DNA of 63,801 bases, filler included, from Aduncisulcus paluster (Eukaryota): NCBI GenBank assembly GCA_024181965.1. It is 8 parts of 8 records of this genome, joined end to end, with 100 filler letters (N's around TTAATTAATTAA, not from the genome) between each part and the next. Parts side by side here need not be neighbours in the genome. Positions count along the whole stretch, not along the records: positions 30,073 to 37,994 come from BQXS01009730.1; 7 more parts are not named here. One strand, written 5' to 3'. Numbering within the stretch: the first letter of the stretch is position 1; each line of letters begins with the position of its first letter. Both the position numbers and the translations under genes were made by a program. The notes under the pieces were generated by a model. It was not told where the DNA came from. It did no database searches and saw nothing but the letters and a program-made list of their open reading frames with translations. Shown here in pieces: positions 7,426 through 56,148 of the stretch.

Positions 7426-7525
7426 NNNNNNNNNNNNNNNNNNNNNNNNNNNNNNNNNNNNNNNNNNNNTTAATTAATTAANNNNNNNNNNNNNNNNNNN
7501 NNNNNNNNNNNNNNNNNNNNNNNNN
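7426..7525. other. Artificial contig spacer (44N-TTAATTAATTAA-44N)
   Basis: The same six-frame-stop linker also occurs at 17259-17358, 29973-30072, 37995-38094, 44868-44967, 52903-53002 and 56049-56148. Confidence 0.97.
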
Positions 7526-8980: not shown

Positions 8981-10273
8981 ATGAGTCTAAGACCAACTAC
9001 TGTTTCGCACAAAGCCCGCCACCGTCCTCCATCCTTCGCTCGTCCTCGTACTGTTGGAAATGTTGAGGATTTATGGGATTTGGATGATCCTATGCTCGAT
9101 CAATACATGGACAAACCTCCCAGGAGGGCTCCCGAAAAGGGGTTTTCTGACACTTATAAAAAGCATTATGATGCTGTCAAACGTGAAACCATTGGTAAAA
9201 GAAACAAATTATTGATCAGAGATGGGAGAATAATCGGTATTAAACACACTCCTGGAGATGATAAATGTGAGTGTCTCACCTGTGCTACTGCAAGATTAAG
9301 AGCATTACAAAAGGCTAAAAAAATGCTTGGTGATCCTGCCGAAAAAGAATATGCTGCTTATCTCAAAGATCGTGTCAAGGCTCAAGAAATTGAGGAAAGA
9401 AACGCTGCTATGCAACGTCGTGCTGCCACTAAAGAAGTCAAGGATGACAATAAGAAGCATCTTACCGATCTCGAGAAGCGTCGTGCTGACTTGAAGAAGA
9501 AAGGAGTTTTATCGGCCCACCACTATCCTTTGGGTAATATTTTCGAGAAAGCTGAGAAGAAAGGAGTTGTTGACTATGCCAAGAGAAAGAAGGAGTTTAG
9601 AGATGGATTGAATGCTCAGCTTGATCAACAAAGGAGAACCTACGAAAGTGAGAGAGCTGCTGATCTTGCTTATGGTAGACAAAAGGCCAAAGAAGCCTAT
9701 GCTGCTCTTGAGAAACAAGCCATTGATGATGCTGCAAAAGATGCTGCCCAAAAACGTGCCATGAGAGAGCTTTTGAGTGAACAAATCGCTGCTGGGCATT
9801 ACTCCATTCCAAAGATTCAACCTATGTCTGACGTATTCTCTGGGAGAAAAGATATCGATTTGGCTAAACTTCGGCGTGAAAGACAACAAATTGAGAGGGA
9901 AAACGCTATGGCCAGCCGTCAAGCTAGGCGTCGTGCAGCAAGTCGTCATCAGGAACTTGCTGATGCTGAAATGCGGGTTGCCAAAGAAAATGCCGAAATC
10001 ATGAGGAAAGAGAAAGAAGAATTTGCCCGTAAGAAGAAAGAATTGGCTAAGACTATCACTTCGCAACTCCAGGAACAAATCAGAACCAAACAAGCCATTG
10101 AAGCCAAGGAAAGGGAAGAATTTGATCCATCCTGCACCAGTGCTCAGACTGATACAATGAAGAAGGAAGCTGGGCTTATTCCAAGAGATATTTACAATTG
10201 TTACAAGTGTGGTGTGGAAGTCACCCCAGCTAATGCCTATACCCTCCCTCCATATGCCTTTGAGAAACGTTAA
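8981..10273 (+). CDS. Coiled-coil protein (possibly flagellar/microtubule-associated)
   Basis: 430-aa ORF with long A/E/K/R helices, repeated L-x-x-Q-I/L motifs and CxCxxC/CxxC pairs. The function is inference. Confidence 0.7.
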   Translation: MSLRPTTVSHKARHRPPSFARPRTVGNVEDLWDLDDPMLDQYMDKPPRRAPEKGFSDTYKKHYDAVKRETIGKRNKLLIRDGRIIGIKHTPGDDKCECLTCATARLRALQKAKKMLGDPAEKEYAAYLKDRVKAQEIEERNAAMQRRAATKEVKDDNKKHLTDLEKRRADLKKKGVLSAHHYPLGNIFEKAEKKGVVDYAKRKKEFRDGLNAQLDQQRRTYESERAADLAYGRQKAKEAYAALEKQAIDDAAKDAAQKRAMRELLSEQIAAGHYSIPKIQPMSDVFSGRKDIDLAKLRRERQQIERENAMASRQARRRAASRHQELADAEMRVAKENAEIMRKEKEEFARKKKELAKTITSQLQEQIRTKQAIEAKEREEFDPSCTSAQTDTMKKEAGLIPRDIYNCYKCGVEVTPANAYTLPPYAFEKR

Positions 10274-10743
10274 TCATGTCAATTCACCTTTTTCTTTATT
10301 GAAGATTCCAGATATCTTCATTATTTCCCTTTCTATTGTTTTTTCTTATTTGGACTGAAACTCATGAGCCAAAAATCTATCCTCAATGATTTGGAGTGTA
10401 TCTAATCTTAAGGGTGCTACTTTTTATTAAATAAACGTGTTTATTTCAATTACAACACTTTGAGAGCGACGATGCTTTGTCGCCATCTGGAAAAAAAAAA
10501 ATTCGTTGCATGATTTTCTGAGACTTTTGATAGGAGAGAAATATGATAGAACTGAAATCAAAACTCAATACGAGCTTAAACGCTCAAATGTCCTACATCC
10601 TGAAAAAAACTTATTACATCATAAAATAAAAATAAATTTGACTATATAATCCATATAATTAAATATTAATGCACCATAGAAAAATATATAATATAGTATG
10701 AATCTCTAGAACCAAATTGCTTTTTTTTTTGATTTGCACAGTA

Positions 10744-11169
10744 ATGGCTGATACCCCAATTGCTTCAGAAGGTGAAATAGGAGAAATTCTTGAAGAAAAA
10801 GTTGAACTTCCTTCAGAATTTGACATAATAACAGAAATATCAGACCCCATTACAATGCATGGGTTAATACAAAACAAGAAGCATGTCGTATTGTTATTAA
10901 TTGCTTCATATTGTGGACCATCCAAAAAATTAATTGAGGATCTCCCAGACTTATTGGGCGAAATAGAAAAAGCTGAACAAGAGATTTATTTCGGAATAAT
11001 GTCGATTGATCTTTTGCCTCCTGCTGCCATTAGATTCAGTGTTCGGGATACGCCTTCATATGTTTTCTTTAAGAATGGCGTTGAACATAACGATTTACGG
11101 TTTTCAGGGTTTAACATGGCTAAATTGAGCGAGTGCTGTGAAGATTTGCTTAGATTACCGGATGAATAG
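10744..11169 (+). CDS. Thioredoxin-fold protein with CxxS site (start uncertain)
   Basis: VVLLLIASYCGPSKKL, then RFSVRDTPSYVFFKNG (cis-Pro region) typical of thioredoxins. Confidence 0.7.
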   Translation: MADTPIASEGEIGEILEEKVELPSEFDIITEISDPITMHGLIQNKKHVVLLLIASYCGPSKKLIEDLPDLLGEIEKAEQEIYFGIMSIDLLPPAAIRFSVRDTPSYVFFKNGVEHNDLRFSGFNMAKLSECCEDLLRLPDE

Positions 11170-11415
11170 ATTAAATCTATTAGATTTACTCATTTTCTAT
11201 CAACAAAGAACATACTTATCAAAGAAATTATTATCAAAAAGTGACAAAAACTATTATTTTTGTTTTTATTCGATCCTGATGAGAATATAACCCGTACCGA
11301 ATTGAAAAACAAAAATAAAAATCCAAATATCAAACTGACAAACAAAAAGAATATAATATTATTATTAATATAACAAAATAACGAAATAAAATAAGAAAAA
11401 ATAACAAAAAATTTC

Positions 11416-11893
11416 TCATTTTCCCTGGAGTTCTTTAACAATATCCCGAGTTGTATTTGGGAACATGGAAGCAACTTTCAATCCCCGTCTAATATCGACC
11501 CCCCTTGTTGAAATATTGAGAACTACCTTGTTCCGGACATTACCTTCGGTTAAATATTCAACACAAACGGCCTTTTCTTTCGATATCGTTCGACCTTTCC
11601 AATCTTCCTCAGTTCCCATGTCTATTTTTAGAATAGCTGAGAAAGGAAATGAAGGAAGCTCGTGATTACGAGATGCCAAAGGTTTCAATCGAACATACGG
11701 TTCAGTACCTGAAAAATCAAACACGAGATTTGAAGTGACAAAAGTTGCCTTTAACAGAGTAAAAGCTAATATTTTCCTCGATTTCAGACAAATATCAATA
11801 AAAGTTACGAGAAATGAATGTTCTTCTGTTGTCATTTTTCTTTTTTGCTCTTCTAAATAAGGGAAAACAATCTCCTCTTCCTCTTCCTCCTCC

Positions 11894-11928
<35 letters not shown>

Positions 11929-13898
11929 TTTTTCTTGTTCTTCTGAGGAAGATTCGAGAATATTCACACGAACTCTTTGTGTCTCTTTCTCTTTCTCCTT
12001 ATCTTCTATTTTTTCGTTTTCATTTGTTTTGTTATCCTTTTGATCTTTGAGATCATGGCCATTTTCTTGTTCTTTCCCTTCAATTCTTTTCCCACTCTCT
12101 TCCTCTTCCTCTTCTTCTTCTCCCTCTCTCTCTTCCTTCTCTTGGGATTCGAGGGGATTCTCTTGTTCTCTATCGGGATCAATATGGATGATNNNNNNNN
12201 NNNNNNNNNNNNTGAGGAAGATTCGAGAATATTCACACGAACTCTTTGTGTCTCTTTCTCTTTCTCCTTATCTTCTATTTTTTCGTTTTCATTTGTTTTG
12301 TTATCCTTTTGATCTTTGAGATCATGGCCATTTTCTTGTTCTTTCCCTTCAATTCTTTTCCCACTCTCTTCCTCTTCCTCTTCTTCTTCTCCCTCTCTCT
12401 CTTCCTTCTCTTGGGATTCGAGGGGATTCTCTTGTTCTCTATCGGGATCAATATGGATGATCATGTCATCTGTCTGCAATAATTCCACGTCATCGGTGGC
12501 ATTATCGTGCAATAATATTATCTCAGGTGAACCAGGCTGAGAATGATGCTTAGCGGGATGAACTGATGAAGCCCCATTAGCTGAATGGTCAACAATCTGC
12601 TGCCGTCTCAAATTACTTAACTCGGCCGATTCCTTCAAAGACGTCGTTTCATGAATATCAATGTCTTCTTCCTGTATTTCTATAGGCTCTCTCATCCCCC
12701 CATCACGCATGATGCTCCCTCTTATCTCATCTGCATCTGACAGAGACAAGACATGAGTGTGTGAGGATGTTTTATGGTTAGAATTATTCATAGTGGGATG
12801 TAAAGAAGAGAAGGGTTGAGAATTAGAGGGAGATAAGAGGGGGGGGTCAATATCCGTTTGAGTGGAGGAAGATACCATCTTAACTTTGACAGTGCCACAG
12901 AGAGAACAAATGCTACAGGCTCTGCCTTCTTTGTCCGTCGAGAGAGAGATAGATTTCGAGAGAGCCTGATCATCATCCAATGGTTGAGTTGTATCACTTT
13001 CCAAAATATGAGAGTGTGCCTGATGATGAAATGATTGAATAGACCGCTGAGGCTCAGCTAATCGAGTTCCAGGACCCCCTGTCATCCTACCACTAACATT
13101 TGTTCCAGTAAAATGTTGTACATGGCTGGCCACTGGTGTTTGGAACATCGATGGAGATGCTGGGAAGACCGATGCTTTAATTGAGGCTGATCGTGGGGAA
13201 ATAGGAGGTTTTGATTGAAGCTGAGATGGATCACCTGGGAGCTTAAGTTTCTTGAAAATAAGTGATGACGAGGGTTTCGAACATTGTGGTTTAGATGGAG
13301 ATATAAGGGGTTGAGCAGGCTTTGGAGTATGACTATTTGACCATCCAGCTGGCGGAGGAATGGGAGGCTTTGAGGAAGGAGGAATGGGAGGTCTTCGAGA
13401 AAATGAGGGCTGAAAACTATGTACTGAAGGCCTATCAGAAGAGATATATTGATTAGATATTGATTTAGTAGCATTTGAAATATAATATGGTCTAGAAATA
13501 GATCTATATATCGGTTTTGAAGAAGGAGTATGTGGAAGATCTTTGGGGGTTATATCTATAGGTTTTGGAACAGATTTTGTTTTAGTTTCATCTATTATGG
13601 TCTTCTTAGGGGGGATCGGCTCAATTTTTGCAGGGGATGAAGTTTTACGAGCAACAGAAAACGAGAAAAGGGGATCTTCCTCAATAAAAAGTGTTTCTTT
13701 CTCTTCTATGGGCTTTTTAGGCACTATTCTTGATTGAAAAGGTGGTACTTCATATTTTGAAGTTCCAAATAGTCCCTTTCCTTGCTCTTGGGCATTTTTT
13801 CGTTTTCGTTCATCCTCTTCAGCTAAAAATCGTCTAGCCCAACTTCCTACTTCATCAGATTCTCTTTGTCCATGTAATCCAAGATAATATTGGTCCAT
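11416..13898 (-). CDS. Pro/Ser-rich protein with possible C-terminal PH-like domain; split by assembly gap
   Basis: ORFs 12006-13898 and 11416-11967 join once the duplicated overlap (11944-12192 = 12213-12461) around the 20-N gap is collapsed. Confidence 0.65.
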
Positions 13899-17258: not shown

Positions 17259-17358
17259 NNNNNNNNNNNNNNNNNNNNNNNNNNNNNNNNNNNNNNNNNN
17301 NNTTAATTAATTAANNNNNNNNNNNNNNNNNNNNNNNNNNNNNNNNNNNNNNNNNNNN

Positions 17359-20358: not shown

Positions 20359-21340
20359 ATGGAAAAAGCTCCAGTCTCACAAGAATCTTCTCCTTCTTCC
20401 TCCCCTTCGGCCTCCCCTTCGCCCTCAATGTCTCAATCTTCTCCCTACATGAAGTCAAGTGCATCTTCTCCCCTTTCTTGCCATTCTAGTGTTATTGATG
20501 ATGTCGATACTACTCCAATGTCAAGTGCTTCAAAATCGGTTCAAAAATTCATTGAAACGAGCGCCTTCAATCTCATCAAATTATCGATATATATTGTTGG
20601 TATCACTCTTATCATTGCTATTCCAACATTATTAGCGTTGGAGTGGAAAGCTCCCACTGGGAATACTGGAGATGAATCAAGTCCAACTTTCAAGGAATCT
20701 GTGAACGGTTTACAAGACAAAGATAAAAATATTCACAATTATACAGATATGGCAAATTCAAACGATGTAAGTGATGATCAAGATGAAGAAGAAGGAAATA
20801 GTGTCTCAAAAGTACTAATGGAGTTGGAGAAACAATATCACGAAGCAGAAAAAGACAAGTCAGAAATTCTTGAAAAAATGTGGAAGAAATTTACTGNNNN
20901 NNNNNNNNNNNNNNNNAACATTATTAGCGTTGGAGTGGAAAGCTCCCACTGGGAATACTGGAGATGAATCAAGTCCAACTTTCAAGGAATCTGTGAACGG
21001 TTTACAAGACAAAGATAAAAATATTCACAATTATACAGATATGGCAAATTCAAACGATGTAAGTGATGATCAAGATGAAGAAGAAGGAAATAGTGTCTCA
21101 AAAGTACTAATGGAGTTGGAGAAACAATATCACGAAGCAGAAAAAGACAAGTCAGAAATTCTTGAAAAAATGTGGAAGAAATTTACTGAATTAAGGAAAG
21201 AAAAGAGTGATGATCTGATTGCTCTAAGAGATTCAGTGAAACAGAAGTTCAAGGATTTCGTTGAAATGTTGGAAAGCATTGACAAAGTCGAAGGCGATTG
21301 GAAAGAGGATGCCGATATTGAATTAGAAGACGTGATGTAA
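20359..21340 (+). CDS. Single-pass membrane hypothetical protein; split by assembly gap
   Basis: One TM segment (LSIYIVGITLIIAIPTLLAL). 20625-20896 is duplicated as 20917-21188 around the 20-N gap. Confidence 0.65.
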
Positions 21341-25509: not shown

Positions 25510-28500
25510 TTAAATTAGAACATCACAAAATATGTCTGTTTTCCGCTTTCTTTCTCCACTCAAAATTTCCTCCTGTTGTTTTGTAGCTTCGAAGAGTCCA
25601 TCAGTCAAGGATTGTTGCAAAGCTCCAGTATCAAATACCCCTGCGCTATATTTGAAACAATCCATTGTCTTACGTCTCATTTCATTCCTAAATGATTGTT
25701 CTCTGGCCATTTTACGGATGATATTGATGTAATCATCAGCATTAGCTGCGCATAAATTTCCAAGACCACAGCTTCTGAGGATTGAACAAGAGAGAGAATT
25801 GCTTGGTCTGGTCCCACCATCCATGGAGACAACTGGGACTCCGCAATACAATGAATCGACCACATCAGACACACAATTACATACACATGGATCAAGAGTG
25901 ACATCGAACATAATGGAACGTTTGATGTGGATGATACGAGGCGCCCTCTCAAGAACATAGATCTGACGGCATCTCTTCCAGTGCAACAATGACATCAAAG
26001 CATGTATAATGGAACTCACGGATTGGGCAGGTTGAGCAATGATAACCAAAGCAGAAGAAACGACTTCCTTCAGAACTCCAGCACAAATGGCAAGTGTTTG
26101 TTGGTCAAATCGACTCAATGACCCTGTAAAGACCATTAAAAACCTGTCCAATGGAAGGCCAAAAGCTTTTCGAAGAGCGAGTTTTCCCCTCGGCATGTGA
26201 ATAAAAGGTGATGCACATCCTTGAGAGAACTGCACAATTGGGGAGGTTGAAAAGAGAGTTGAGGAAGGGAAAGGGAGGAAATCACATGAACCACATCCAT
26301 CGCAGAGCAAGACAGAAGCTTTGGAGAAGGATTGAGTTGGTTTGTGAGTTAACTTCGAATTGGATGAAGAAGCAAGCAAATCATCTTCTTCCTCTGATCT
26401 CTCGGTTATTGAGTGAGTTCCAGAAACTCCATCACGATTTAGTTGATGTGATTCTAGTATAGGCATCTGGGGCGATGGAGTGGAATTTGGTTCCTTAATC
26501 AAGGTCTTACCGTCACAAATAGGAACCCTAATCCACCCATCGTCAGCATCTTGAGCCAAGAATGCCCGTTCGTAAGCAAGTGAGCGTTCAAAAAACTCAT
26601 ATACACAACTAGCCTCACGTTCAGCATTCGATATAATTGGAGACGTCAAATCAACCTCTCCTGAATACTCAATTTGATCCATAAATCCGACGATACCGTC
26701 TTCATCCTTCTCATTTCGAATGTGAACATCCCTATCGGGAGCAAAACCAAGGGGAGACACACGCATGGCGAGACCGTTCAAGATAGAGTAATCGCAGAAA
26801 TATGACGAATAAGGTGGAGGTAGATTGATGTGAATATCAAGAGAAGCAGACGGAGGAATAGTTTTTTCCTCACATGGTGGCAGTGAAATGAAAGGAGGAA
26901 GGGCAATGGCAGAGCTTGAAGAAGATGGGGATGAATGTACATGCAAATGGGACACACCGGCACCCCTGTTAAGCTGAGGATCTCCACGAGATAGGGAAAC
27001 AAGATCCTCTTTTAGTTTGGAGACCGAGGCTAAATAATCTGTGGGATACAAATGTGGGAGAATTGAAGTGGCATCGCAGCGTATGGAATGTTTCATACGT
27101 TTGGGCAGATAGTCTCGAATAACATTATCAATGAGAAGAGGAATAATGTTGGAAAGACGCTGATACATGGAAGATTCGTGCTCTTTTTCATCTGAAGATG
27201 ATTGACGAAGTGTTCCGCGATCAACTTTCATTGAGACTAATTCAGGCCCAAATATGGTCTTGAGTTCAATAAATACTTGGCGTAGAATAAGGTGTGTCGT
27301 CCCACTATAATTGGCAATACCAATACGATCCAAGCACTTCCGTAAGAAGGATTCATCGTCAACTCCCGCTTCTGTTTCTTCTCCCTCTTCTTCAATCGTA
27401 TCAGGTCGAATGTGGAAACTAGGGTTGAAGAAAAATCCCAGAACAAGATTGATTAGTTTCTCCCTCCATACAATCCTTGACAGACTATAGGGAGATAGAG
27501 CAAAACTTGAAGGAGCTGCTGTCATTTTAGCTGTACTGTCTGATTGGGTCTGGGTAAAATATGGATTGAATGAGAAAGATGATCTCCACTGAGTTTGATA
27601 TCCATGATTACACACCGATTGACCATGTTTCCAGATATTTTCAAAACTTCCATTGGGCCCGATCCACCACTCTTCTTTTCCACCAATCCCTTCACTTCCA
27701 CGAATAGACCAATCGAATATAGGAATAGAAGACGAAGTCTTAGTATAAAAAACAGGGGTACGCTCATCACGAGTACCCAAAGATCCCTTTTCCTTTGATT
27801 GTTTCTCATCTTTCCCCTCTTTCATAAGGAAATCTCTTTGACAACTTCCATGGAATCCAATATTACCAAGAGCAACGTGGGCTGATCCAATAGTGTGGAA
27901 ATTCAAGGGAATAGGAGAATTGTACTCACTGTCTCCTTTGAAAGAAGAATCATCCTTCCCGTGTGTTCCTGCTCGGGCTGAGCAATTTATCCATTCCCTT
28001 TCACGACAACCCACAGCACAGCATCCATGAAGTGAATGTTGTCTGAAAGGGTCAAGAACAAGGGTGATATCAGGGACAAATACGGACATAGTACAACGTG
28101 AAGGGCCATCAGTACATTCAATCGCAGGACCATCAGAAAGCTGACCGAGAACTGGAGAGGAGTGTTGACCCGTATAACTGGGGGGCAATGAAGACAAAGG
28201 AAGTGGAGAGTGATCACTTATCATAGATTCCTGGTGGGTTATTATGGGTTCTGACGATGCCAATGATGTAGTTTTAGGAGCGAAGAAAGATGAGAGGCTC
28301 GTGTATGGCATATTGGTAGATATAAAAACAGACACATCATGTAGATAGAAATAAGATATCGCTGACAAGACATAGGGTTGCAATAATAGTGGAGAAGGAG
28401 AAGAAGGAAGAACGGAGAGGATAGAAGAAGGATTATGTGTTGATTGAGGAGAAGCACGAGGAGGGATATGCCATATTCCCTTTGGAGATATTCCGTCCTG

Positions 28501-29972
28501 GACGGATAAACACAGTGAAACTCTGACAGCTCGTTTCTCTATCATCGTTCCATCCTTATCTGTTCCAACTCCAAGGGGAGCTCGATCTAGATCCTTTGAT
28601 TGCGTCCATTGGCCCCAGATATGCTTGGACATATCCATTCTACGCACGTATGAAGTAGATTTCATGCATCCACAGAGTTTAATCGCAAGGGATAGATGTC
28701 TAGAGGATGTCAAGGCGCTGAGGGAAGACAGGGATGACAAGAGAAGCAGGGAAAGAGGTCGTTTGGTTTGAGGAGGGTAATTCATTCGTGGAGGTGGCAT
28801 AACGATGGAAGACATACGGGGAATTGGAAACTTATGCTGAATAGGAGCAGATGGATGTCTTCTTAGTGGAGAAGATCCCCCTACAACTGACGAAGATAAG
28901 ACAGTTGAATCGTCATGGAAAGATGACACAAATGTGTCAGAATCAACGAAAGAGGAGAGAGATGACATCGTTGAGAGAGAAGAATATTTTGATAACTTTG
29001 AATCCATATACCCATTACCTTCTCGTTCCCTTTCCCTGGACTCCATAATCATGTCAAAATTATCTCTTGAATTATCAATAGATGAAACAACATGGGAGGC
29101 AAGAGAAGGGAGGGTTGAAGAAGCGGAATAAGGAGCATCAGGTCTGTCAAACAACCAACCACGAGGATTACGGATAAAATAAACATCATTAACATAGTTC
29201 AAGGAAGAAGAGGTTGTTGATTCTTTCACAAGAGCAGCATCCCTATCACCATATATCCATTTCACAGGTACTTTCTCAAAATGTTCTAAAAATTGTGAAT
29301 ATTGATCTGATCTTTCAAGATCCATCAGTTTCATCATCGAAGAGCTTCCTGCCTTGGCCTTTTTCTTTATCTTATTGTTTCTTGATCTGAATTTCATCAC
29401 CCATTTTCCTGATAGAGAGTCCAATTCCCATATGACTTTCTTCCCATTCCGTTGTTTCATCTCAGATAATTTCAATCTCCTTGCTTCTTCACGCAGAACT
29501 CTATCATAGACCAGACAGATCGAGACAATTTCCCATTCACTGATCTTGAATGGAGAGCACATCTCTGGTGGTAAGAGAGGAGATAAAGGAGGACCAAGAG
29601 AGGTTGATGGAGAAGAAAAAGAAACTTCTGTTTGCTCAGGAGTACTATTAAACTCATTGAATGCGACTTTACCCACCTTTTCAAGCATCTCTCTCCACCC
29701 ACCAGTGTTGACAGAGAGTAAAGTGATTGGAAGAAGGATGGAACAGTGAGAAAATAGGCATAAAACGGACGAGAAATGGAGAGTAAGAAGCAAGAGAGGG
29801 AGGAGGACATGTGAAGGAATGGAAGGATGTGGAGGATGAGATGGAAAGCCGTGTAATGGTGGAAGTGAGGAGAGGAAGATGTTTGGTGATGTGATGGAGT
29901 TCTGACAGCGCATAATTGGAATAGAGTCCGAAGGCAAAATAATTAGATCAGAAACACTATTGTTCTGCTTCC
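25510..29972 (-). CDS. Large protein with C-terminal GT41 (OGT/SPINDLY-like) domain, 5' partial
   Basis: The C-terminus RKAFGLPLDRFL..VLKEVVSSAL..HIKRSIMFDVTLDPCVCNCVSDVVDSLYCGVPVVSMDG..SILRSCGLGNL..DDYINI follows the GT41 C-terminal catalytic half. Confidence 0.65.
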
Positions 29973-30072
29973 NNNNNNNNNNNNNNNNNNNNNNNNNNNN
30001 NNNNNNNNNNNNNNNNTTAATTAATTAANNNNNNNNNNNNNNNNNNNNNNNNNNNNNNNNNNNNNNNNNNNN

Positions 30073-30507
30073 TCCCAAAGGATGTTTGTGAACAACTCTC
30101 GTCACATAGAGCTTCAATTCCTTATCTTCCTCCGGAATAATTATTCTCCCATCCTCGTTCAGTAAATAACCTTCTTCTTCAAACATTTCATCATTCCGAC
30201 TCAAATATTCACTCTGACTCTTGACAATTCTCTCTTTTAAATCCGGTATCGAAATTTGAACGGATTTAACGGACACTCTTTCCTCATTCTGTCTCGATAG
30301 GAAGTCAGCAAGAATATTTTCTTTTCCACTAATATGCTCGATCTCGAAATCATATTCCGACATTTCCATTCTCCACCGCATAAGTTTTGGTGATGCAGCC
30401 TTCAAAATGAACGTAAGATTCCGATGATCCGTTTCAATTTTGAACTTTCTTCCTAGAACGAATCTCCTTGCTTTTCTCAGACACCAAACCACCCCAAAAG
30501 CCTCCTG
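30073..30507 (-). mobile_element. Outer Ty3/Gypsy element, RNase H / integrase-linker fragment (downstream of nested insertion)
   Basis: EAFGVVWCLRKARRFVLGRKFKIETDHRNL...RWR...HISGKENILADFLSR; continues the frame interrupted at 37054. Confidence 0.9.
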
Positions 30508-30585
30508 TGTTTGACGTTAGCAATTTATTCAATAAATGTGATCGGAGTGATCAAGGTTCTATAAATAGATAGCTGAGAAGTTACA
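30508..30585 (-). repeat. 3' LTR (78 bp)
   Basis: Minus strand TGTAACTTCTC...CGTCAAACA, identical to 36976-37053; contains TATTTATA and AATAAA. Confidence 0.95.
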
Positions 30586-30596
30586 CTTCCCCCTCT
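30586..30596 (-). promoter_or_regulatory. Polypurine tract
   Basis: AGAGGGGGAAG immediately upstream of the 3' LTR on the minus strand. Confidence 0.85.
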
Positions 30597-30675
30597 AGAG
30601 CTTGATCACCGATCAACACTCGTCCTAGATCATGTCCTTAAATCCTATGACCTTGTTCCATTTTAATTACATACC

Positions 30676-30701
30676 TTATTATTATTATTATTATTATTAT
30701 T
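30676..30701 (+). repeat. (TTA)8 microsatellite
   Basis: Directly upstream of the tRNA-like RNA. Confidence 0.9.
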
Positions 30702-30705
30702 TTCT

Positions 30706-30800
30706 AATATGAGTCGGATAGCTCAATGGGTATGACTCCTGGTCATACTTCCTTAAGCTATTTCAGCGCGCGGGTTCGAATCCCGACTTTCTCATATTTT
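30706..30800 (+). ncRNA. tRNA-like Pol III (A-box/B-box) structured RNA candidate inside the retrotransposon
   Basis: A box TAGCTCAATGG (30719-30729); B box GGTTCGAATCC within T-arm CGGG-TTCGAAT-CCCG (30771-30785); terminal stem AATATGAG/CTCATATT; TTTT terminator (30797-30800). Not a canonical cloverleaf. Confidence 0.65.
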
Positions 30801-31874
30801 CTGAGAATCCTTAGTTTTTGCTATCTTCCTTCTTGCTATCACAGAATCCTTTAATTTCTTCTAGAACACTCTGTAGCCTTATAATTACTTCTTTTCTTTC
30901 CATAATCCTTTTCAAATTAAGCAATTTCTTCATTCCCTTCCCCCCTCTCCTTCTGGGGTGTTATTTCATGTAATAATATCCAGATGGATAGTAAAATTGC
31001 TTATATTTCTCTTTTCTGCATTATTTACCTTATCTAACCTTGCTATTCCTGATTTCCCTTTCTTTTCTCTTTTTTGTTGACTCGTGTCTGAAAATTCTTG
31101 TCTTCCTGTCCATATTAATGCTTTTTTATATGATTATCATATGTTTTTCCTATTAATTCCTTTCTTTTTTATCATAACATTCTTCATTTCTCATTTTTCT
31201 TTTCCCCGACTATTTTCCGGATTATTCCATGATTTTTCTTTCAATTCACCCGTTTTATATCTATCTTATGTCTTACCATCCTTTTCCTGCCTTGCTAATG
31301 GGGTTAGTTTCGTTTGTTTATAAATCTTTTTATATCTCATTTTATATAACATAATTATTACAAATTGTTTTAAAATCTTTTCCAAGCTTCCTTTTTTAAC
31401 TTAAAACTTCCTTAATTAAGCTTATTTTTCTTTTCCTTTATAGTAAAACTAACTTCTGGAGTAGACCTCGAAAACGGCATTAGATTTGCTCTACGACGAA
31501 GTCGGTTTTTTCGATCGTTTTCCTTAACGCAAATTAATTGCCGAATTCACTTTTATACCTTTTAAGGGTGCTGAACCTTGAATCTTTTCTTATTTTCCTT
31601 AAATTCATAGGTAATTTTTCCTTTTTACCTCGATAAAAACACATTTATGATTTTTTCCTTAAAAACTTTATAAATTTTGTTAAAACCTTTATTCAAGCTA
31701 GAATATTCTTTCTAGGAGCTATATCCTTTCCTCCCATCTTATTTCCAACTTGCTTTTTCCAGCTTTTCCTTCTAAAAACCCTGTTATTCAATAAATACCT
31801 TTCTTAAGCTTCCTATTGCTCGGATATTGTCAATTTTTCCTTTATATATCCGCTACCGATTTAAATTATCTCTT

Positions 31875-32750
31875 TTAGTGGGATACTTCATTGAATCTTC
31901 TCACCAACCTTGATATTTGTCTGGCCTTTATCCAGTTTTCCTTTTAAGGCCTTATTTCCTTCCAAATATTTATCCAGAGCCTCACAATCTTCCACTGTGG
32001 GAAAATATTCCCATGTATTGTGTTCTTCTGTGTAGTTTTTCCATTTCACGAGGAATTTTATAGGTAATTTGCCCCCATGACGGTGTCTTAAGATTTTTTC
32101 AACTATGTATTCTTCCTCGTCTTTCCCATTGATGCTTATTTCCTCTTTTTCTGAAACAAATGGGTCCTCGACGTATTTAACCATTCGCCTTACTGGTATA
32201 ATGTCTTCTTCACCTCCTTTTACCGGAACAACTTTGTATTTGTTATCAGTGATTTTTTCTTTCACAATAAATGGTCCATTCAGCGGTGCTTTCTCCTTTT
32301 TACCTTGTTTCGGTTTGGATAATAGGATTTTTTCCCCTATTTCAAATTTTTCCGGTCTTTATCCAGTTTTCCTTTTAAGGCCTTATTTCCTTCCAAATAT
32401 TTATCCAGAGCCTCACAATCTTCCACTGTGGGAAAATATTCCCATGTATTGTGTTCTTCTGTGTAGTTTTTCCATTTCACGAGGAATTTTATAGGTAATT
32501 TGCCCCCATGACGGTGTCTTAAGATTTTTTCAACTATGTATTCTTCCTCGTCTTTCCCATTGATGCTTATTTCCTCTTTTTCTGAAACAAATGGGTCCTC
32601 GACGTATTTAACCATTCGCCTTACTGGTATAATGTCTTCTTCACCTCCTTTTACCGGAACAACTTTGTATTTGTTATCAGTGATTTTTTCTTTCACAATA
32701 AATGGTCCATTCAGCGGTGCTTTCTCCTTTTTACCTTGTTTCGGTTTGGA
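31875..32750 (-). repeat. Two extra tandem copies of the integrase C-terminus/chromodomain
   Basis: ~31875-32355 and ~32356-32750 repeat the 3' end of pol (~32751-33232) essentially exactly. Confidence 0.85.
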
Positions 32751-32764
32751 TTTAGTGGGATACT

Positions 32765-35700
32765 TCATTGAATCTTCTCACCAACCTTGATATTTGTCTG
32801 GCCTTTATCCAGTTTTCCTTTTAAGGCCTTATTTCCTTCCAAATATTTATCCAGAGCCTCACAATCTTCCACTGTGGGAAAATATTCCCATGTATTGTGT
32901 TCTTCTGTGTAGTTTTTCCATTTCACGAGGAATTTTATAGGTAATTTGCCCCCATGACGGTGTCTTAAGATTTTTTCAACTATGTATTCTTCCTCGTCTT
33001 TCCCATTGATGCTTATTTCCTCTTTTTCTGAAACAAATGGGTCCTCGACGTATTTAACCATTCGCCTTACTGGTATAATGTCTTCTTCACCTCCTTTTAC
33101 CGGAACAACTTTGTATTTGTTATCAGTGATTTTTTCTTTCACAATAAATGGTCCATTCAGCGGTGCTTTCTCCTTTTTACCTTGTTTCGGTTTGGATAAT
33201 AGGATTTTTTCCCCTATTTCAAATTTTTCCGGTTCTATTGCTGAGGTTTCCCTTTTATCGTCGCTCATCAATATTTTATCGCTCACAACTTCTTTATCGA
33301 GTCCTTTTAGGACCAACCCTCTCTGAATTTCCGTTGAATCCGTTTCAACCAGTTCCCCTTCTCGCAAAAACATACCATAGAAGGGCTGTACCCTCGTTAT
33401 GGAATGAATTCTTTGATTTAAGGTCTCCATCGCCAGGTCTGCTAATTTTCCCAAGTCTGGGTCATTTTCCATATTCCAAATCCGTTGAATTTTTCGGATT
33501 TCCCGATTAACCCGTTCCACGCGACCATTTGCTTCATGATCGTATGGTAATGTTGTTTTTTGTTCGATACCCTTTCCTTTTAGCCACTCTTGCATCCGTC
33601 CTCCGGTGAACTGTTTGCCCCCGTCGGAGCGTAATGTGTAAGGTTTCCCGAACATTGCAAACCACTTCCTTAGTAAAATAATCGTTTCGTCAACCGTAAC
33701 GGATTTTAAAGGAGCAATTAACGTAAATCTAGTGAAGTCATCCACTAACACGAGGAGATAGCGGAATTCTTTTTCATCCATATCGCATGGTCCAATCGTA
33801 TCGACCGAAACGCTCAGCCAGGTGCCAAAAGCACGTAAAGTCCCGTGGCCGCGGGGTTTGATGCTCTTTAATTTTTGGCATTTTAAACATTGTCGGACAA
33901 TATTCTTGGCTTTTCCTTTCAAATTTTCGATCTTAATCTCCTTTCTTTTGCAGTAGTTTTCTATCATACCACTCCCAGCATGTCCAAGTCTTTCGTGGAT
34001 GTCTCTTATCAATTTATCATCATCCTTAGGCTCGTCTTGTTCCTCTACTTCGACCAGACATGTCTCCACCGTGTCCTGGGCCCCAACTCGTGACAGGAAG
34101 TCGGCAAAACCGTTGGTTTTTCCAGGGATGTGCCGGATTTCCATATCATATGGAGCCAATTGCAGTTTCCACCTTATAAGTTTTGGTACTTCTGACTTAT
34201 ACAAGTAAATCAAGTTTTTATGATCTGTTTCTACGATAAACTTCTTTCCCATCAGTAAATACCTGTTTTTAGTTATAGCATATACTACGGCAAAGCATTC
34301 CTGTTCTATTACCGACCAGTTAGCCTCAACTTTCGAAAACTTTTTGCTGAATAGTGCTACGAGTCCTTCTTTTTCTGATCCTATTCTTTTCTGCCAGATT
34401 CCGCCTCCTATTCCTTTCGTGGAGCCGTCGGTCCTTACAATAAACGTTGCTTCTCTGCAGGGGTGTTGTAAGGTGATTCTTCTTCTAACTAGTTCCTTCA
34501 ACTCCTCTAGGGCTTTGCTCTGGGCTTCCATCCAAACAACTTTCTCTCCTTTTGTTGCCAAAAGGTCCGATATCGGGCTTGCTATCCTCGAATAATCGGG
34601 GATAAAGCTACGAATGTAATTTAAACACCCTATTAGTTTTTGAACTCCCTTTTTCGTAGTTACGGGGTGTAAATCTTCAATAGCTTCGATTCTTTCGTTT
34701 TTTATCTTCCTTCCGTCGCCCGAAACTTCAAAACCGAGATATTTCACTGTTGTTGTAGCAAAGTCAGTTTTTTCATAATTTACGATCAGGTTCGCCATCC
34801 CTAATCTATCCATTACCTCCTTTACATTTTTAATAAATTCTTTCTTCGTTTTACCCATTACTAATATATCATCCAAGTAAACATAACATCCTCGTCCAAT
34901 TATATCGCTCAATACCTTTGTCATGATCTCTTGGAAGTGGGATGGGGCTGTTTTCAGGCCAAAAGGCATTCTACTCCATAGGAATGTGCCTAATGGCGTT
35001 GAGAAAGCCAGTTTATCCTGCGAAGTTTCCTTGACTCCCACATTATAGTATCCGGACTTAAGATCGATGGCTGCGAAGTAGATATATCCCTCCAACGCTC
35101 TAAACAATTCGTCTGGGCTTGGAGTTGCATAGGATTCATTAATCGTGATTGCATTGAGTCTCCGATAGTCTATACAGAGTCGTATTTCACCAGATTTCTT
35201 ATATTGTATCGACAAAGGTGCTGAAAACCCGCTTTTACCTCTCCTAATGAATCCCTTGTGTAGTAATGTTCTTAGTTTATCTGATACCTCCTCCTGTAAA
35301 TGTATTGGTACTGGACGTGGCTTCAAATTCACCGGTTTCGAGTCCTTTTCAAGTCTTAGTTCAAATTTCTGTACTTTCGCAGGCAATGTTCTGTCTATTT
35401 GCTTTTCATACTCCTTGACAATTTCTGTGATTTCTTTTTCCATTTCTTTTATGTTACATCTTATTTTACGTCCTAACTCCTCTTCTGGTTCCTTTAAATC
35501 TGCTTCGGTTGGTATTTCCACGAAACCTTCTCCTATTTCTTTCTCCAAACTCGTGATTTGTGTTTCATACCCCCCTTGACCCAGTAGATCGTAGTTAAGG
35601 ATCGTCGATGCTCCAATAAGTATGTCTTGTTTCGTATTTTCCATTTTTCTATTGCTGAGGTTTCCCTTTTATCGTCGCTCANNNNNNNNNNNNNNNNNNN

Positions 35701-36961
35701 NACCCAGTAGATCGTAGTTAAGCATCGTCGATGCTCCAATAAGTATGTCTTGTTTCGTATTTTCCATTTTTATCACAGTAAATGTCTCTTCGAATGTGAG
35801 CTTCTCATCTTTATCCTTTACAAAGTCCACAATCAGATTTAATTCTCCTAACACCGGTGTCGTTTCTCCTGAGGCTAGCGTCGCGACTACCCCCGTGTTA
35901 TTTGAAATGAATCCGAATTCCTTCGCCAGCGATTCTGCTATTACTGATCCTGTTGCTCCCGTGTCCAGGAGTGCTTGTATTTCCTTCCCTTTATCTGTCT
36001 TTTCCCTTTTTATCGTCATAGGTCGAGTAAAGTCTGTTCCCGATCCTATCTTATGAATAAACAAATAAGAATTGGTCCCTTTACTGTTCAGAACCTCCTT
36101 TTCTTTACAAAACTTCGCGAAATGTCCCCTTTTTTCACATTTCCGACAGATAATGGAGGGATAGTACCTATTGTACTTCGGATCCTTACTGGGAATCCAC
36201 CTTGCTCCTCTTGTTGGTTTCTTTTCCTTTTCTTTCAACTGAGAACCACCAAATCTTCTCTTACCGGTCCTATGCCAGTAATTTGCTTCCACATGTCCTG
36301 TTTTGCCGCAGAGTCTGCAGACTGGTTTCCCTTGACGCCGCTGGTGCCCTTGTGTGTCTGTACCATGTTTTTCTTTCTCCAAAGCTTCGTGCGTCCTTTC
36401 AGACTCTATGATTTTCTTCAATTCTACGATGGCGATCCCAATTAAGCTTCCCAGCGTCGTGACATCGGACATTTGAGCTCGGACACATTCCTTTAATCGT
36501 CCTGTAAATAAACCTTCAACGAAATGGTCCCCAATAGACTTTTCTTCACCCAACTTCGGAACTCTGTTCCGTACTCCCTTAAATTCCTTCGTGTACGTCA
36601 ATAAAGCGTTTATCGACAGTTCCTTTCTCATACGAATCCTCCGTAACTCATCGTACAAATCGATCGTCGTACTAGCTCCGAAAATCTTGTCTACCGCTGT
36701 TCGAGCTGTTTTCCTGGTTGCTGTTGTCCTGAAATCTGGGACCTTTGATAAGTCCTTAATGATGTCCAGGACAGTCACGTCCACCAATTCTGGCCATTTT
36801 TTGTGACCACCCAAACTAGTGTAATGTTCGTGATCTGCCATAAAGTCTATCCAAGTCTCACTTGTTAGCTCTTCTAACCGCGGCATCGCTGGAGCAGCTT
36901 CCGTTGTTAATACGGTCTTGCTAGAGCTAGGAGCGTCCTTCTTAGTCTCCTTTTGCGTCAT
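32765..36961 (-). CDS. Gag-Pol polyprotein (~1,360 aa when the gap overlap is collapsed)
   Basis: Zn knuckles CRLCGKTGHVEANY (degenerate) and CRKCEKRGHFAKFC; protease LLDTGA; RT YLDDIL; RNase H TDGS/ETDHKNL/ADFLSR; integrase HERLGH..CLKC plus D-D-E; GPF motif; chromodomain EYIVEKIL..FLVKWKNY..NTWE. The halves overlap in MENTKQDILIGAST across gap 35682-35701. Confidence 0.9.
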
Positions 36962-36975
36962 TCTAATAATATTAT

Positions 36976-37053
36976 TGTTTGACGTTAGCAATTTATTCAA
37001 TAAATGTGATCGGAGTGATCAAGGTTCTATAAATAGATAGCTGAGAAGTTACA
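36976..37053 (-). repeat. 5' LTR (78 bp)
   Basis: Identical to 30508-30585; the gag ATG lies 14 nt downstream, at 36961. Confidence 0.95.
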
Positions 37054-37813
37054 TCCTGCTCCAGGGTGCACCAATGTTTTTCTTGTTCTGTGAATTTCTT
37101 AGCGAAGAAAAGAATGGGGACTTCCTTTCCATTCTTGATCATTATGAGTGCTCCACCCAGTCCCTGGTTCGAAGCATCAGTCCTAAGGATTAAAGGACAG
37201 TCTGGATTGTAATGGAACAGTTCCCTATTTCCTTCCAAGCTCAGAACGATTCTCTTCCAGGCATCCTTCTGTAATTTTCCCCATGTTAGATCTCCTTTTT
37301 CCTTGAGTAGATCACTTATTGGCTGAGTTAATTCGACGTATCTTGGAATAAAATCTCTCAAATAATTTAGAGTGCCCATCATTCGACGAACCCCCTTCTT
37401 TGTTCTTGGTGGTTGTATCTGGTTCAAAGCCTCCAATCTTTTTGTCGATATTTTCCTTCCTTTGGAGTCCCTTTGCTTTCATTCTAACCAAAATACTTCG
37501 ATTAGCCTCCAGAAGCTCCCCGTTTGCTAATTCTAGCGTTACAGAGATCTTCTTTTCCTTCTTAATAAATCTCTTGTCCATCTTCGACTGTTTCAACAGA
37601 CTATGTTCAGCCCCTGAGTCCAGCATAACCTTTGATAGGCTCTTCATATCCATCCGGTGTCAAAAACATCATATACTCAACGGGGGCTTTACTGGACACA
37701 CCAGCCATCTTTGCTTTTGTGGTGACCATTCTCAGGGACATTCTAAAAATAGATTGGTTCGCTCGAGATCTGTTTATTAATAAATTGGACCGCATTATAG
37801 TTAGTTTGGCCAC
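37054..37813 (-). mobile_element. Outer Ty3/Gypsy element, degenerate: protease joined to RT-thumb/RNase H, RT core deleted
   Basis: MLDSGAEHSLL (protease) is followed after a frameshift by PPRTKKGVRRMMGTLNYLRDFIP..LRTDASNQGLGG..EKHWCTLEQ; no YxDD region. Confidence 0.85.
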
Positions 37814-38094
37814 ATTTTGATCAAAATCATATCAAACTACCTTTACTATATAATTGACGCCAAAATTTTTCTGTTAAAATGGTACAAACAAGAAGCCAAT
37901 TGAAAAACGCCAATATTGATAATAATGATGAAGAATTTGAAATTGTTGGTGATTTACAAACTGAACGCCATGATAGTGATGCCAGTCATGGTGANNNNNN
38001 NNNNNNNNNNNNNNNNNNNNNNNNNNNNNNNNNNNNNNTTAATTAATTAANNNNNNNNNNNNNNNNNNNNNNNNNNNNNNNNNNNNNNNNNNNN

Positions 38095-39960: not shown

Positions 39961-42900
39961 TCAACTCCTCAGAGCCTGTGCAAATTTATGCATAATATCG
40001 ATGACAGCGGGGAACAAAGCACTAACACTGGTCTGAATGATCTCACTGAAGTGTTTCATTGCCTCGTCTTCGCTCAAATCTAATCGGAACGTATCATGAA
40101 GCGCTGGAAAAGGTGGTGAACAAGCAGCTTCTTCATCAAACGTCTGGATTCGTTCGCCGACCATCATCTTGAATAAATTGAAGAATAAGTTTGCATGTCG
40201 CCTCAATATCAGGTATGATTCACACGAAAGCTCCTTGAATTGCTTATATCCATCACTGAATGGACCACCCATGGCTTCTACCATTGCTTTCGAGAGCTTC
40301 ATAGCGGGAGCAAAAGCTTTCGGATCTCTTCCAAGCATATACCCGAAATCAATGTGGAACATATTACCATTGGGCTGAACAAGGATATTCTCGAGATGAC
40401 GATCCCCGACACCAAGGAGATAGGTCAGAACAGAACCACCAACACAGGTCTTGACGAAGTTGTCAACACAACGTCGCTCATAACCAGCGAAAAGAGAGGA
40501 AGCCATAGCGCTGGGCAACGAAGGGTCAGATTTCTCAGAAAGTCCCGAAATAGAACCTTGACCTCCTCCGANNNNNNNNNNNNNNNNNNNNCTTCATAGC
40601 GGGAGCAAAAGCTTTCGGATCTCTTCCAAGCATATACCCGAAATCAATGTGGAACATATTACCATTGGGCTGCACAAGGATATTCTCGAGATGACGATCC
40701 CCGACACCAAGGAGATAGGTCAGAACAGAACCACCAACACAGGTCTTGACGAAGTTGTCAACACAACGTCGCTCATAACCAGCGAAAAGAGAGGAAGCCA
40801 TAGCGCTGGGCAACGAAGGGTCAGATTTCTCAGAAAGTCCCGAAATAGAACCTTGACCTCCTCCGATTTTCGATTTATCTGATTGCTGCTCTTCTTGCTC
40901 CTTTGCTTCCTCTTTCTGTTTCCACTCGAATATCCAATAATCCCTGATTGATTTGTGAGAACCCAGAAGCTCTTGGAGATCGATAGAAGGACGAATGACT
41001 TGAACAATGCCGGAAATTGGACTTAGAGCCAACGTATTGATTTTGATCATATTGAGTTGAATGTGCTCTCTGCGGAGGATAGCTCCCATAATATTCTTCA
41101 TTTGAGCCACCATTTGATCCTGGCGAACATCATCATCATATTTGAACAGAACATATGAAGTGAAGATATATTTCGAAGGAATAGTCACAACTTCTTCCCA
41201 TTCTTCATCACTACAACACTCATCATCATCTGCAAACTCATCACAATCATGCTCGGAGGAGGATGAAGATCCAGAAATAGTACGTGAGAAAGAGTGTTTC
41301 TCTTTGATGTTAGATGTTGATAGATGAGAATCATCACCATCGAGTCCAAGATCATCGAGAATGTCATCATCGAGATCAAGAGCATCCTTCACAATAGATG
41401 AGGGCTGAGGTAAGGAATGATCTTGATCACCATTGCCACGACCAACATCCCTAGACTCAGGAACATCCTTCTCCTCGTCCTCAAATCCAACAAACCCTGC
41501 AGCAGAAAGAGAGGAGGAAGAAGAACTTGGGAGATCTGTGGAATATGGAGAAGAGAGTAACAGAGATTGCGTCCGATCTTTCTTTGTGCCAAGAGTAGAG
41601 TCAATATCGGAACCGAATGAAGTGTAAGAAACGGACTTGGAAGCCCATTTACGGCCAATAGATGACTCTTCCTGTTTTTTCTTTTGTATAGAGTCAAACA
41701 AATCGTCCATCATTGCGTTTCTCTTGGTTTCACTTGTATATTCTTTCCCTTTTCCCCTCAAACCCGACTCTTTCTTCCTTCGTTCACGTCTGCCTTTTTC
41801 CTGAATATTCTTTGAACTCACACACACAAGCGGGAACAAAAGTGGACATTTAGCACTCTTGAATACATAACACTCATCAGAATCGATATCCAACACCCGT
41901 AGAGATGGCAAGAGAGGATGTGGAATGGTTAAATGGGGTAGAAATGTGACATATTCATTGTCCTCAGTGTCATGCGATTCCCCTGAAGATGACATCACTG
42001 AAGAAGGGAAAGACACAGAGTTAAATGGTGTAGATATCGAAGAAGAGGAGGAGGAAGACGTGGAAGGTGCTTGTGAAGAGGCGAGGGATGTTCCAAGTGT
42101 ATTTTGATCAGTATTTTGCAGTGAAACATCTCTATGATGGGTAAGCTTTGGAATGGTTTCTTTCACTTTGTAGAGAGAAGCTGATGGAGAGGATGAAACC
42201 CCGCTCGTAGCTTTCGAAAGAGCAGAGGAAGAGAGAGGAGGATTAGCATCGGCTTGAACCGTTTGTATATCCTCTTCTTGACCTATACACTCCACAGTAA
42301 CAGAAGTAACATCCAAACCGTGTACGGATTCTCCTTCCTCGTGTTCTTGATCTTTTGGGATATCAGTGGCATCATGGGCATCTTGTTCAGACACCGATGT
42401 GGGAGATACTGTCATATGGGAAGACAGCCGAGAAGGCATTGTTGTTGATGATAGAGGAAGAGCTGTTTTACCACTAAAAATAATATCAGAGTTATTCGTT
42501 GTCGCCTGTTGAATCGAACTCTTCGTCTTCTTTTGTTTCTTTTTCGTATCTGGTTTGTGTCGAATAAATTGACACTCTTTAACACAAGCACAGACATTGC
42601 CGACTTCTTTCTTCATTTGAGAGAGCTTTTCGAGACGAGGTAGTTCAGAAGAAGCTAGAGATGCAGCCATTGATGACATTGAAGACAGTAAATGTTGCTG
42701 TCGTTTTAGTTCCTCACATCTGGGCGGATCAATGGATGTCACACGGGAATAGAACTCACTTTCAAGGGAAGAGAAGAACAAGGAAAGAGGAGAGAAGAGG
42801 GAATGGGAAGTATAATTGGCACCATGTATGGCACCCGAATGAATGTTTGTTGAAGGGTTTGAGCCAAAAGATGCATTTTTACCAGTGATATCGGGCAAAT

Positions 42901-44867: not shown

Positions 44868-44967
44868 NNNNNNNNNNNNNNNNNNNNNNNNNNNNNNNNN
44901 NNNNNNNNNNNTTAATTAATTAANNNNNNNNNNNNNNNNNNNNNNNNNNNNNNNNNNNNNNNNNNNN

Positions 44968-52902: not shown

Positions 52903-53002
52903 NNNNNNNNNNNNNNNNNNNNNNNNNNNNNNNNNNNNNNNNNNNNTTAATTAATTAANNNNNNNNNNNNNNNNNNNNNNNNNNNNNNNNNNNNNNNNNN
53001 NN

Positions 53003-56048: not shown

Positions 56049-56148
56049 NNNNNNNNNNNNNNNNNNNNNNNNNNNNNNNNNNNNNNNNNNNNTTAATTAA
56101 TTAANNNNNNNNNNNNNNNNNNNNNNNNNNNNNNNNNNNNNNNNNNNN

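Follow-up and report, generated by a model that had tools for sequence, protein, structure and literature searches.

A complete Ty3/Gypsy retrotransposon of Aduncisulcus paluster carries, in its 3' UTR and on the strand opposite gag-pol, a 95-nt module assembled from the parts of a tRNA gene. To judge from sequence and arrangement, the A box, the B box and the T arm of this module derive from a tRNA gene, and together with a run of T they would still make up a unit that is Pol III-competent on paper. The explanation that we favour, and to which we give about even chances, is that the module is a decayed tRNA-gene relic that became fixed in the 3' UTR of the ancestor of this element family and is probably a passenger.

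[quoted passage not shown] Its draft genome amounts to 29.4 Mb in 25,863 contigs and the announcement of this genome holds no transposon analysis (PMC9933649). The window analysed here, that is the whole stretch of 63,801 nucleotides, is a chain of separate contigs, and the finding sits on the piece covering positions 30073-37994 (7,922 nt). The contigs are separated by seven linkers of the form N44-TTAATTAATTAA-N44 with stops in all six frames; reading frames that cross them, such as a '1504-aa' frame at 25510-30024, are artefacts in which N was read as X. Every 20-N gap is bordered by near-identical duplicated sequence, and these places look like unmerged contig ends. Frames resembling OGT and PI3/PI4 kinases occur on other contigs and are uninformative on the module. 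The coordinates of the features are given in Table 1.

The retrotransposon, hereafter element A, is a complete and recently inserted element of the Ty3/Gypsy chromovirus type and lies on the minus strand. Its completeness and youth are deduced from the identity of its two 78-nt long terminal repeats (LTRs), the target-site duplication CAGGA and the polypurine tract (PPT); TG..CA termini of the LTRs, an RT-RH-INT order and a C-terminal chromodomain complete, with the duplication and the PPT, the set of chromovirus features. Element A has a size of roughly 6.5 kb and is autonomous, as it encodes the full gag-PR-RT-RH-INT-chromodomain series; the Pfam matches in pol were RVT_1 (2.2e-31), RT_RNaseH (1.3e-26), rve (1.9e-13) and Chromo (6.9e-11). 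Gag and pol probably form one continuous frame, since the break between them (35682-35701) coincides with a 20-N gap having near-identical sequence of 70 nt on either side. LTRs of 78 nt are near the short extreme among autonomous LTR elements. In protein searches, the nearest relative of pol was 41% identical and came from the same organism, the rest being near 30% (556 proteins at E<=1e-20 among 8,000 scored candidates), and all four relatives of gag were labelled Aduncisulcus paluster. Element A is itself nested in a second, different gypsy element whose RNase H domain it interrupts: the pol-like matches of the latter, at 37460-36999 and 30507-30292, show 37% and 51% identity, respectively, to the pol of element A. 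This second element extends to 37994 and, minus the insert and one copy of CAGGA, its reading frame would cross the insertion site. The chromodomain-coding end of the element A pol is present three times in tandem (31874-33233, in units of ~431-446 nt), the first and third copies being 100% identical over 483 nt, and either a genuine duplication or a loop in the assembly could account for this arrangement.

The LTRs, the PPT and the Pfam domains agree in placing the module in the 3' non-coding region of element A, 121-215 nt upstream of the 3' LTR and antisense to gag-pol, as the sequence-only reading had proposed. All the motifs listed in that reading are present on the plus strand at 30706-30800, and the tRNA-like promoter parts and the type-2 Pol III layout that it described are borne out at the level of the sequence: an A box is followed after a 43-nt spacer by a B box within a canonical T arm, and a T-run begins 13 nt past the B box. 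The parts of the module succeed one another as in a tRNA, from an acceptor-like 5' strand through a D-arm half and the T arm to an acceptor-like 3' strand and a discriminator-like A. The latter is followed by TATTTT and no CCA is encoded, which points to a gene or a primary transcript as the origin and not to a mature tRNA. Read-through of a mature tRNA from a former PBS was rejected as a source, given that no TGG (the complement of CCA) precedes the acceptor complement and that a gene-type T-run is found instead. A second run of five T lies at 30816-30820. Just downstream of the module, AGAATCCTT occurs twice (30804-30812 and 30843-30851) and 30805-30828 is 71% like the module end at 30778-30801; these similarities may be weak traces of other relics or may be coincidental in sequence of low complexity.

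Table 1. Coordinates, along the window, of the module, of its host element and of the joints between contigs.
Feature	Position	Strand	Remarks
tRNA-derived module	30706..30800	+	leader, acceptor-like 5' strand, A box, rebuilt middle, T arm/B box, acceptor-like 3' strand, T-run
A box TAGCTCAATGG	30719..30729	+	D-arm 5' half of ancestral tRNA
B box GGTTCGAATCC	30773..30783	+	within T arm
T arm hairpin CGGG-TTCGAAT-CCCG	30771..30785	+	contains B box
TTTT T-run, possible Pol III terminator	30797..30800	+	from sequence
Hairpin GTATGAC/GTCATAC	30730-30736 / 30742-30748	+	7 bp, loop TCCTG
Terminal arms AATATGAG/CTCATATT	30706-30713 / 30791-30798	+	8 bp
Imperfect palindrome centred on TCCTG	30718..30761	+	44 nt; arms compared, inverted repeats
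Direct repeat TATTTTCT, left copy	30698..30705	.	8 nt; possible target-site duplication
Direct repeat TATTTTCT, right copy	30795..30802	.	8 nt; possible target-site duplication
(TTA)8 microsatellite	30676..30699	.	abuts module, 5' side
3' LTR of element A	30508..30585	-	78 nt, TG..CA, 100% identical to 36976-37053
5' LTR of element A	36976..37053	-	78-nt repeat
Polypurine tract AGAGGGGGAAG	30586..30596	-	directly upstream of 3' LTR
Target-site duplication CAGGA	37054..37058	-	5 bp; other copy 30503-30507
Rest of 3' UTR	30801..31873	-	67% purine on sense strand, 30% G+C
pol: RT, RNase H, integrase, chromodomain	32768..35668	-	Pfam and translation
gag and aspartic protease	35702..36961	-	two CCHC knuckles; Pfam and translation
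Linkers	7426-7525, 17259-17358, 29973-30072, 37995-38094, 44868-44967, 52903-53002, 56049-56148
20-N gaps	12193-12212, 20897-20916, 35682-35701, 40572-40591		duplicates of 249, 272, 70 and 275 nt, respectively

The relationship of the module to tRNA genes has to be seen against the performance of tRNA finders in such a sequence. With default settings, ARAGORN reported no tRNA gene in the whole window. At a threshold of 90%, its single call in the window was a minus-strand 'Leu(aag)' at 30761-30846, rejected as an artefact built on the near-palindromic T arm. With the threshold at 80%, the plus-strand module was among 24 calls in the window, and 108 calls were obtained when introns were allowed; as the window is AT-rich and yields 24 calls at that setting, the call on the module amounts to noise. 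An Arg(cct) placed on the module at 80% with introns allowed was not significant either. Rfam returned nothing on the module at the gathering score, its tRNA model being absent from the results up to E<=10 as well. When the 106 nt were searched alone under relaxed settings, the T arm alone was matched, by positions 348-362 of the tmRNA model, a member of the tRNA clan (15 of 15, 8.5 bits), next to a further and irrelevant match of 13.5 bits. The check by Rfam and tRNA finders suggested with the sequence-only reading therefore calls no tRNA on the module and recognises its T arm only.

The readiness of relaxed ARAGORN to make false calls in the AT-rich window, 24 of them at the 80% threshold, could be taken to mean that the module resembles a tRNA gene by chance and has no tRNA ancestry. 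The frequency of its motifs argues otherwise. The window contains a single A box (TRGCNNANNGG) that precedes a B box (GGTTCRANNCC) by 25-55 nt, where 0.0013 are expected analytically; when the window was simulated 110 times with a first-order Markov model, this composite never appeared. The 13-mer GGTTCGAATCCCG around the T arm, with at most one mismatch, is likewise present a single time, the expectation being 0.01. In addition, the T arm is perfect and the G+C content is locally raised. We regard a chance resemblance as practically negligible, and descent from a tRNA gene as secure in view of the rarity of the A and B box composite, the canonical T arm, the tRNA order of the parts and the TATTTT end.

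This ancestry does not extend to the fold. The acceptor-like stem is paired at six of its eight positions, with two central mismatches, the D stem is devoid of its 3' strand, and the middle consists of a hairpin of 7 bp with a 5-nt loop, set inside a 44-nt palindrome. As modelled, the module is no longer able to fold as a tRNA and the cloverleaf is lost. The layout that had been claimed for the plus strand, with one long hairpin in place of the D and anticodon arms, was reproduced by the minimum-free-energy fold at -28.2 kcal/mol (z -2.83, one of 200 shuffles as good). The complementary strand reaches -29.8 kcal/mol (z -4.11, again one of 200 shuffles as good); since it folds at least as well, the stems are inverted repeats at the DNA level and single out no strand.

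The origin of these inverted repeats can be followed in part. In the palindrome, the left arm is ATAGCTCAATGGGTATGAC, the reverse complement of which, GTCATACCCATTGAGCTAT, compares with the right arm GTCATACTTCCTTAAGCTAT. Our reading is that the right arm arose when the D-arm half was copied, almost faithfully, in inverted orientation and took the place of the tRNA centre; the structure would then be a rearrangement scar rather than an evolved hairpin. The pairing of the long central hairpin stands in both sequence and fold, including that of GGATAGCT with AGCTATTT through two G-U pairs, but its interpretation as an evolved fold is not supported. The palindrome can alternatively be drawn with a stem of 5 bp that closes the loop CTCCTGG of 7 nt (U33, anticodon CCU). 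The terminal stem calls for a similar distinction: its 8-bp pairing holds, but four of the eight pairs are supplied by the direct repeat TATTTTCT.

The two copies of TATTTTCT flank a unit of 89 nt (30706-30794). Flanking repeats of this kind were found at 73 of 8715 sampled positions of the window (0.84%), and since the repeat is AT-rich and abuts a microsatellite, this p of ~0.008 is suggestive and not proof. The G+C content of the module is 44% against 30% for the surrounding UTR, and contigs break at the microsatellite (apparent cut at 30670-30712). The 8-nt repeat, the contrast in G+C content and the junction at the microsatellite suggest an old insertion of the module into the UTR.

The distribution of the module within the element family was followed in contigs from two runs of one sample, the depths given below being sums over contigs and not copy numbers. 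In run X1, the depth was 22,843 for the bin of the module, 23,436, 19,895 and 19,284 for the next element bins and 119,837 for the LTR bin. No contig joint skipping the module was found in the contigs of the two runs. A depth showing neither excess nor deficit relative to the neighbouring bins and the absence of a skipping joint argue that the module was inherited with the element and is not an abundant free SINE. Each run yielded one variant contig in which 31958 abuts 30935, with loss of 1,022 nt of UTR (30936-31957) and retention of the module; by its coordinates, pol would end shortly past the joint with a different short C-terminal end, and the UTR would measure about 330 nt. Among the 40 listed of 134 contig differences, a subset from which nothing is concluded, none falls in 30551-31014. 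The bulk of the family contigs carry the module, which is not peculiar to one copy.

These data bear on the proposal of a private nested insertion, in which a free tRNA-derived SINE or a tRNA pseudogene would have landed in a single copy of the element. SINE insertions into LTR elements are commonplace, and the 8-nt flanking direct repeat is what such an event could leave behind. Nevertheless, the module lacks the excess or deficit of depth, or the skipping joint, that a private insertion would bring with it (22,843 over the module against 23,436 and 19,895 over its neighbours), although a low-copy source would escape notice in these contig sums. The unit is, moreover, only 89 nt long and devoid of body and tail: unlike a SINE2, it ends at the acceptor-like strand with no 3' tail, the microsatellite being on its 5' side. 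Summed over contigs, the depth across the unit does not exceed that of the adjoining element. We hold a private insertion to be highly improbable.

Other repeats showed up in the same contigs. The LTR depth in run X1, ~5x that of the element interior, suggests the existence of solo LTRs or of other elements with the same LTR. A 54-nt stretch of the 3' UTR (31446-31499) reaches a contig depth of 94,380 against about 10,000-13,000 in its flanks, with contigs diverging at both edges, and is probably a separate short repeat common to other loci. Searches elsewhere returned no further copy of the arrangement. A metagenome scan with pol gave 36 pattern matches and two confirmed loci (30% identity over 105 residues and 76% over 17 residues), neither of which is a sibling element or has a B box. 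No match was obtained in a scan of viral contigs with a 30-nt stretch of the module, and a protein search with the 48-residue open frame covering the module produced no candidate on other copies.

Among the functions envisaged for an RNA of the module, the sequence-only reading had included that of a primer. The 5' LTR is separated from the ATG of gag by only 14 AT-rich nucleotides, ATAATATTATTAGA (36962-36975 of the window, minus strand), in which no tRNA-type PBS is recognisable, no TGG occurs and no complement to the acceptor or 3' end of the module is present. The predicted duplex of the 30 nt following the LTR with the module RNA has an energy of -11.4 kcal/mol against a shuffle mean of -11.3, with 215 of 500 shuffles as good, and the only complement of at least 10 nt to the 3' end of the module elsewhere in the element is a 10-mer inside gag. 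Complementarity beside the 5' LTR is not above that of shuffles, and the primer proposal fails. Self-priming with the LTR in the manner of Tf1 is not supported either: the predicted energy is -8.5 kcal/mol, whereas shuffles average -9.2 and 306 of 500 do as well.

A different reading assigns the activity to the sense strand, where the stretch would bind a host tRNA as part of the genomic RNA, or would be a structured cis element for packaging or dimerisation, shaped as a three-way junction with an exposed GCGCGC. In Ty3 and Gypsy, the genomic RNA contains segments towards its 3' end that base-pair with T-arm, D-arm or anticodon-stem portions of the primer tRNA and in this way bridge the ends of the genome (PMC5371799; PMC1635307). 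The sense strand of the module is complementary to generic T-arm and D-arm sequences and lies in the 3' UTR shortly before the PPT and U3, as do those tRNA-binding segments; the fold of the minus strand is the stronger one (z -4.11), and in the absence of a canonical 5' PBS priming would be unusual anyway. However, a bipartite site requires a 5' segment for the same tRNA, whereas ATAATATTATTAGA has neither TGG nor an acceptor-end complement. In addition, gene order, T-run and the complete A box are all preserved in the 95 nt, an extent that exceeds the 11-12-nt patches known from Ty3 and Gypsy. On balance, a sense-strand role appears very unlikely.

That the element maintains the module as a working Pol III unit in antisense is a reading that we consider unlikely. 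The module could specify an RNA of about 85-90 nt that is an exact complement of the 3' UTR and would serve in copy-number control or, through its ~19-bp hairpin, as a Dicer substrate. Alternatively, TFIIIC bound to the boxes could, with no RNA being made, form a chromatin barrier in an element that its chromodomain directs to heterochromatin. The intact promoter geometry and terminator, the presence of the module in the bulk of the family contigs and its maintenance in the variant with a short UTR are consistent with such a role. Identical LTRs indicate that the copy is young and the family active, so that the module is at least not disabling. Pol III promoters serving LTR elements have precedents in Cassandra, Helenus and Ajax, and the antisense transcript of the module, unlike that of every TRIMp3 case, cannot make the template RNA of the element (PMC10886601). 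The fold of the plus strand is, furthermore, no better than that of the minus strand. To our knowledge, Giardia is reported to be without recognisable TFIIIC subunits, and this renders any box-dependent function in the lineage itself uncertain.

The reading of the module as a relic and probable passenger would proceed as follows. A tRNA gene, or a short tRNA-derived copy, would have been inserted backwards into the 3' UTR of the ancestor of the chromovirus family, an event that we infer from the 8-nt direct repeat, and would have been copied along with the element ever since. Its middle would have been rebuilt as a 44-nt palindrome and its acceptor stem damaged, whereas the boxes and the T-run could on paper still bind TFIIIC and yield an RNA of about 85-90 nt. 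The module would thus be a presumed passenger, dispensable for the replication of the element. The survival of boxes, T-arm pairing and T-run amid such rearrangement would also fit selection for a Pol III or TFIIIC function; intact promoter parts are, at the same time, what makes a relic noticeable, so that ascertainment bias is at work. In the same way, the occurrence of the module throughout the family contigs and its persistence in the short-UTR variant fit retention as well as simple descent.

If the module is a passenger, LTR elements can acquire and spread tRNA-like sequences that are Pol III-competent on paper; in this little-studied protist lineage, tRNA-like predictions would be inflated and potential TFIIIC sites scattered in the genome. 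If it is functional, the range of small-RNA-gene modules would extend beyond the LTRs of non-autonomous elements, in which they act as promoters, to an internal antisense unit of an autonomous element, with a role in self-regulation or insulation. That an autonomous chromovirus would maintain a Pol III unit derived from a tRNA gene in antisense, for a hairpin RNA of roughly 90 nt tuning copy number or for a barrier shielding its 78-nt LTR promoter, seems quite unlikely to us; if true, it would be the first internal and antisense counterpart of the Cassandra/Helenus principle. The host element is noteworthy in itself for its 78-nt LTRs and the lack of a recognisable PBS, in a genome without described transposons.

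Several known systems share traits with the module. The VA RNAs of adenovirus, the EBERs of EBV and the tRNA-miRNA units of MHV68 are viral type-2 Pol III RNAs that are expressed and conserved in structure; the likeness, at the sequence level only, lies in a mobile or viral genome that combines tRNA-like promoter parts with a long hairpin. With tRNA-derived SINE heads and nested tRNA pseudogenes, the module has in common A and B boxes within a decayed cloverleaf and a short flanking direct repeat, but it possesses neither body nor tail, gives no sign of independent dispersal at a comparable copy number and is inherited with its host element. Ty3 and the Drosophila Gypsy element, which belong to the same Ty3/Gypsy group, carry near the 3' end of their RNA a stretch complementary to T-arm, D-arm or anticodon-stem parts of a tRNA; these patches span ~11-12 nt and have as partner a 5' PBS for the same tRNA, whereas the 95 nt of the module mirror a whole decayed tRNA gene with its terminator and have no matching 5' PBS (PMC5371799; PMC1635307).

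The closest comparison is with the TRIMp3 elements, where LTR elements likewise carry small-RNA-gene modules. Among LTR elements, the sequence-only reading had cited Cassandra alone, but Helenus and Ajax have been described as well (PMC10886601). The modules of Cassandra (5S), Helenus (tRNA-like) and Ajax (5S) sit, in sense orientation, in the LTRs of non-autonomous elements of small size (311-1263 bp in Helenus); they are thought to drive the element's own transcript, their proposed origin is the insertion of a SINE-like unit and their RNAs are judged mostly non-functional (PMC10886601). Literature searches at the level of listings and abstracts brought up no autonomous LTR element with a tRNA-like unit that is internal or antisense. 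Element A has 78-nt LTRs without A or B box and a full gag-PR-RT-RH-INT-chromodomain series, and its module is single, internal to the 3' UTR and antisense within ~6.5 kb of autonomous sequence. The principle is shared with Cassandra, Helenus and Ajax (PMC10886601), and the differences lie in the place of the module (internal), its orientation (antisense) and its host (autonomous).
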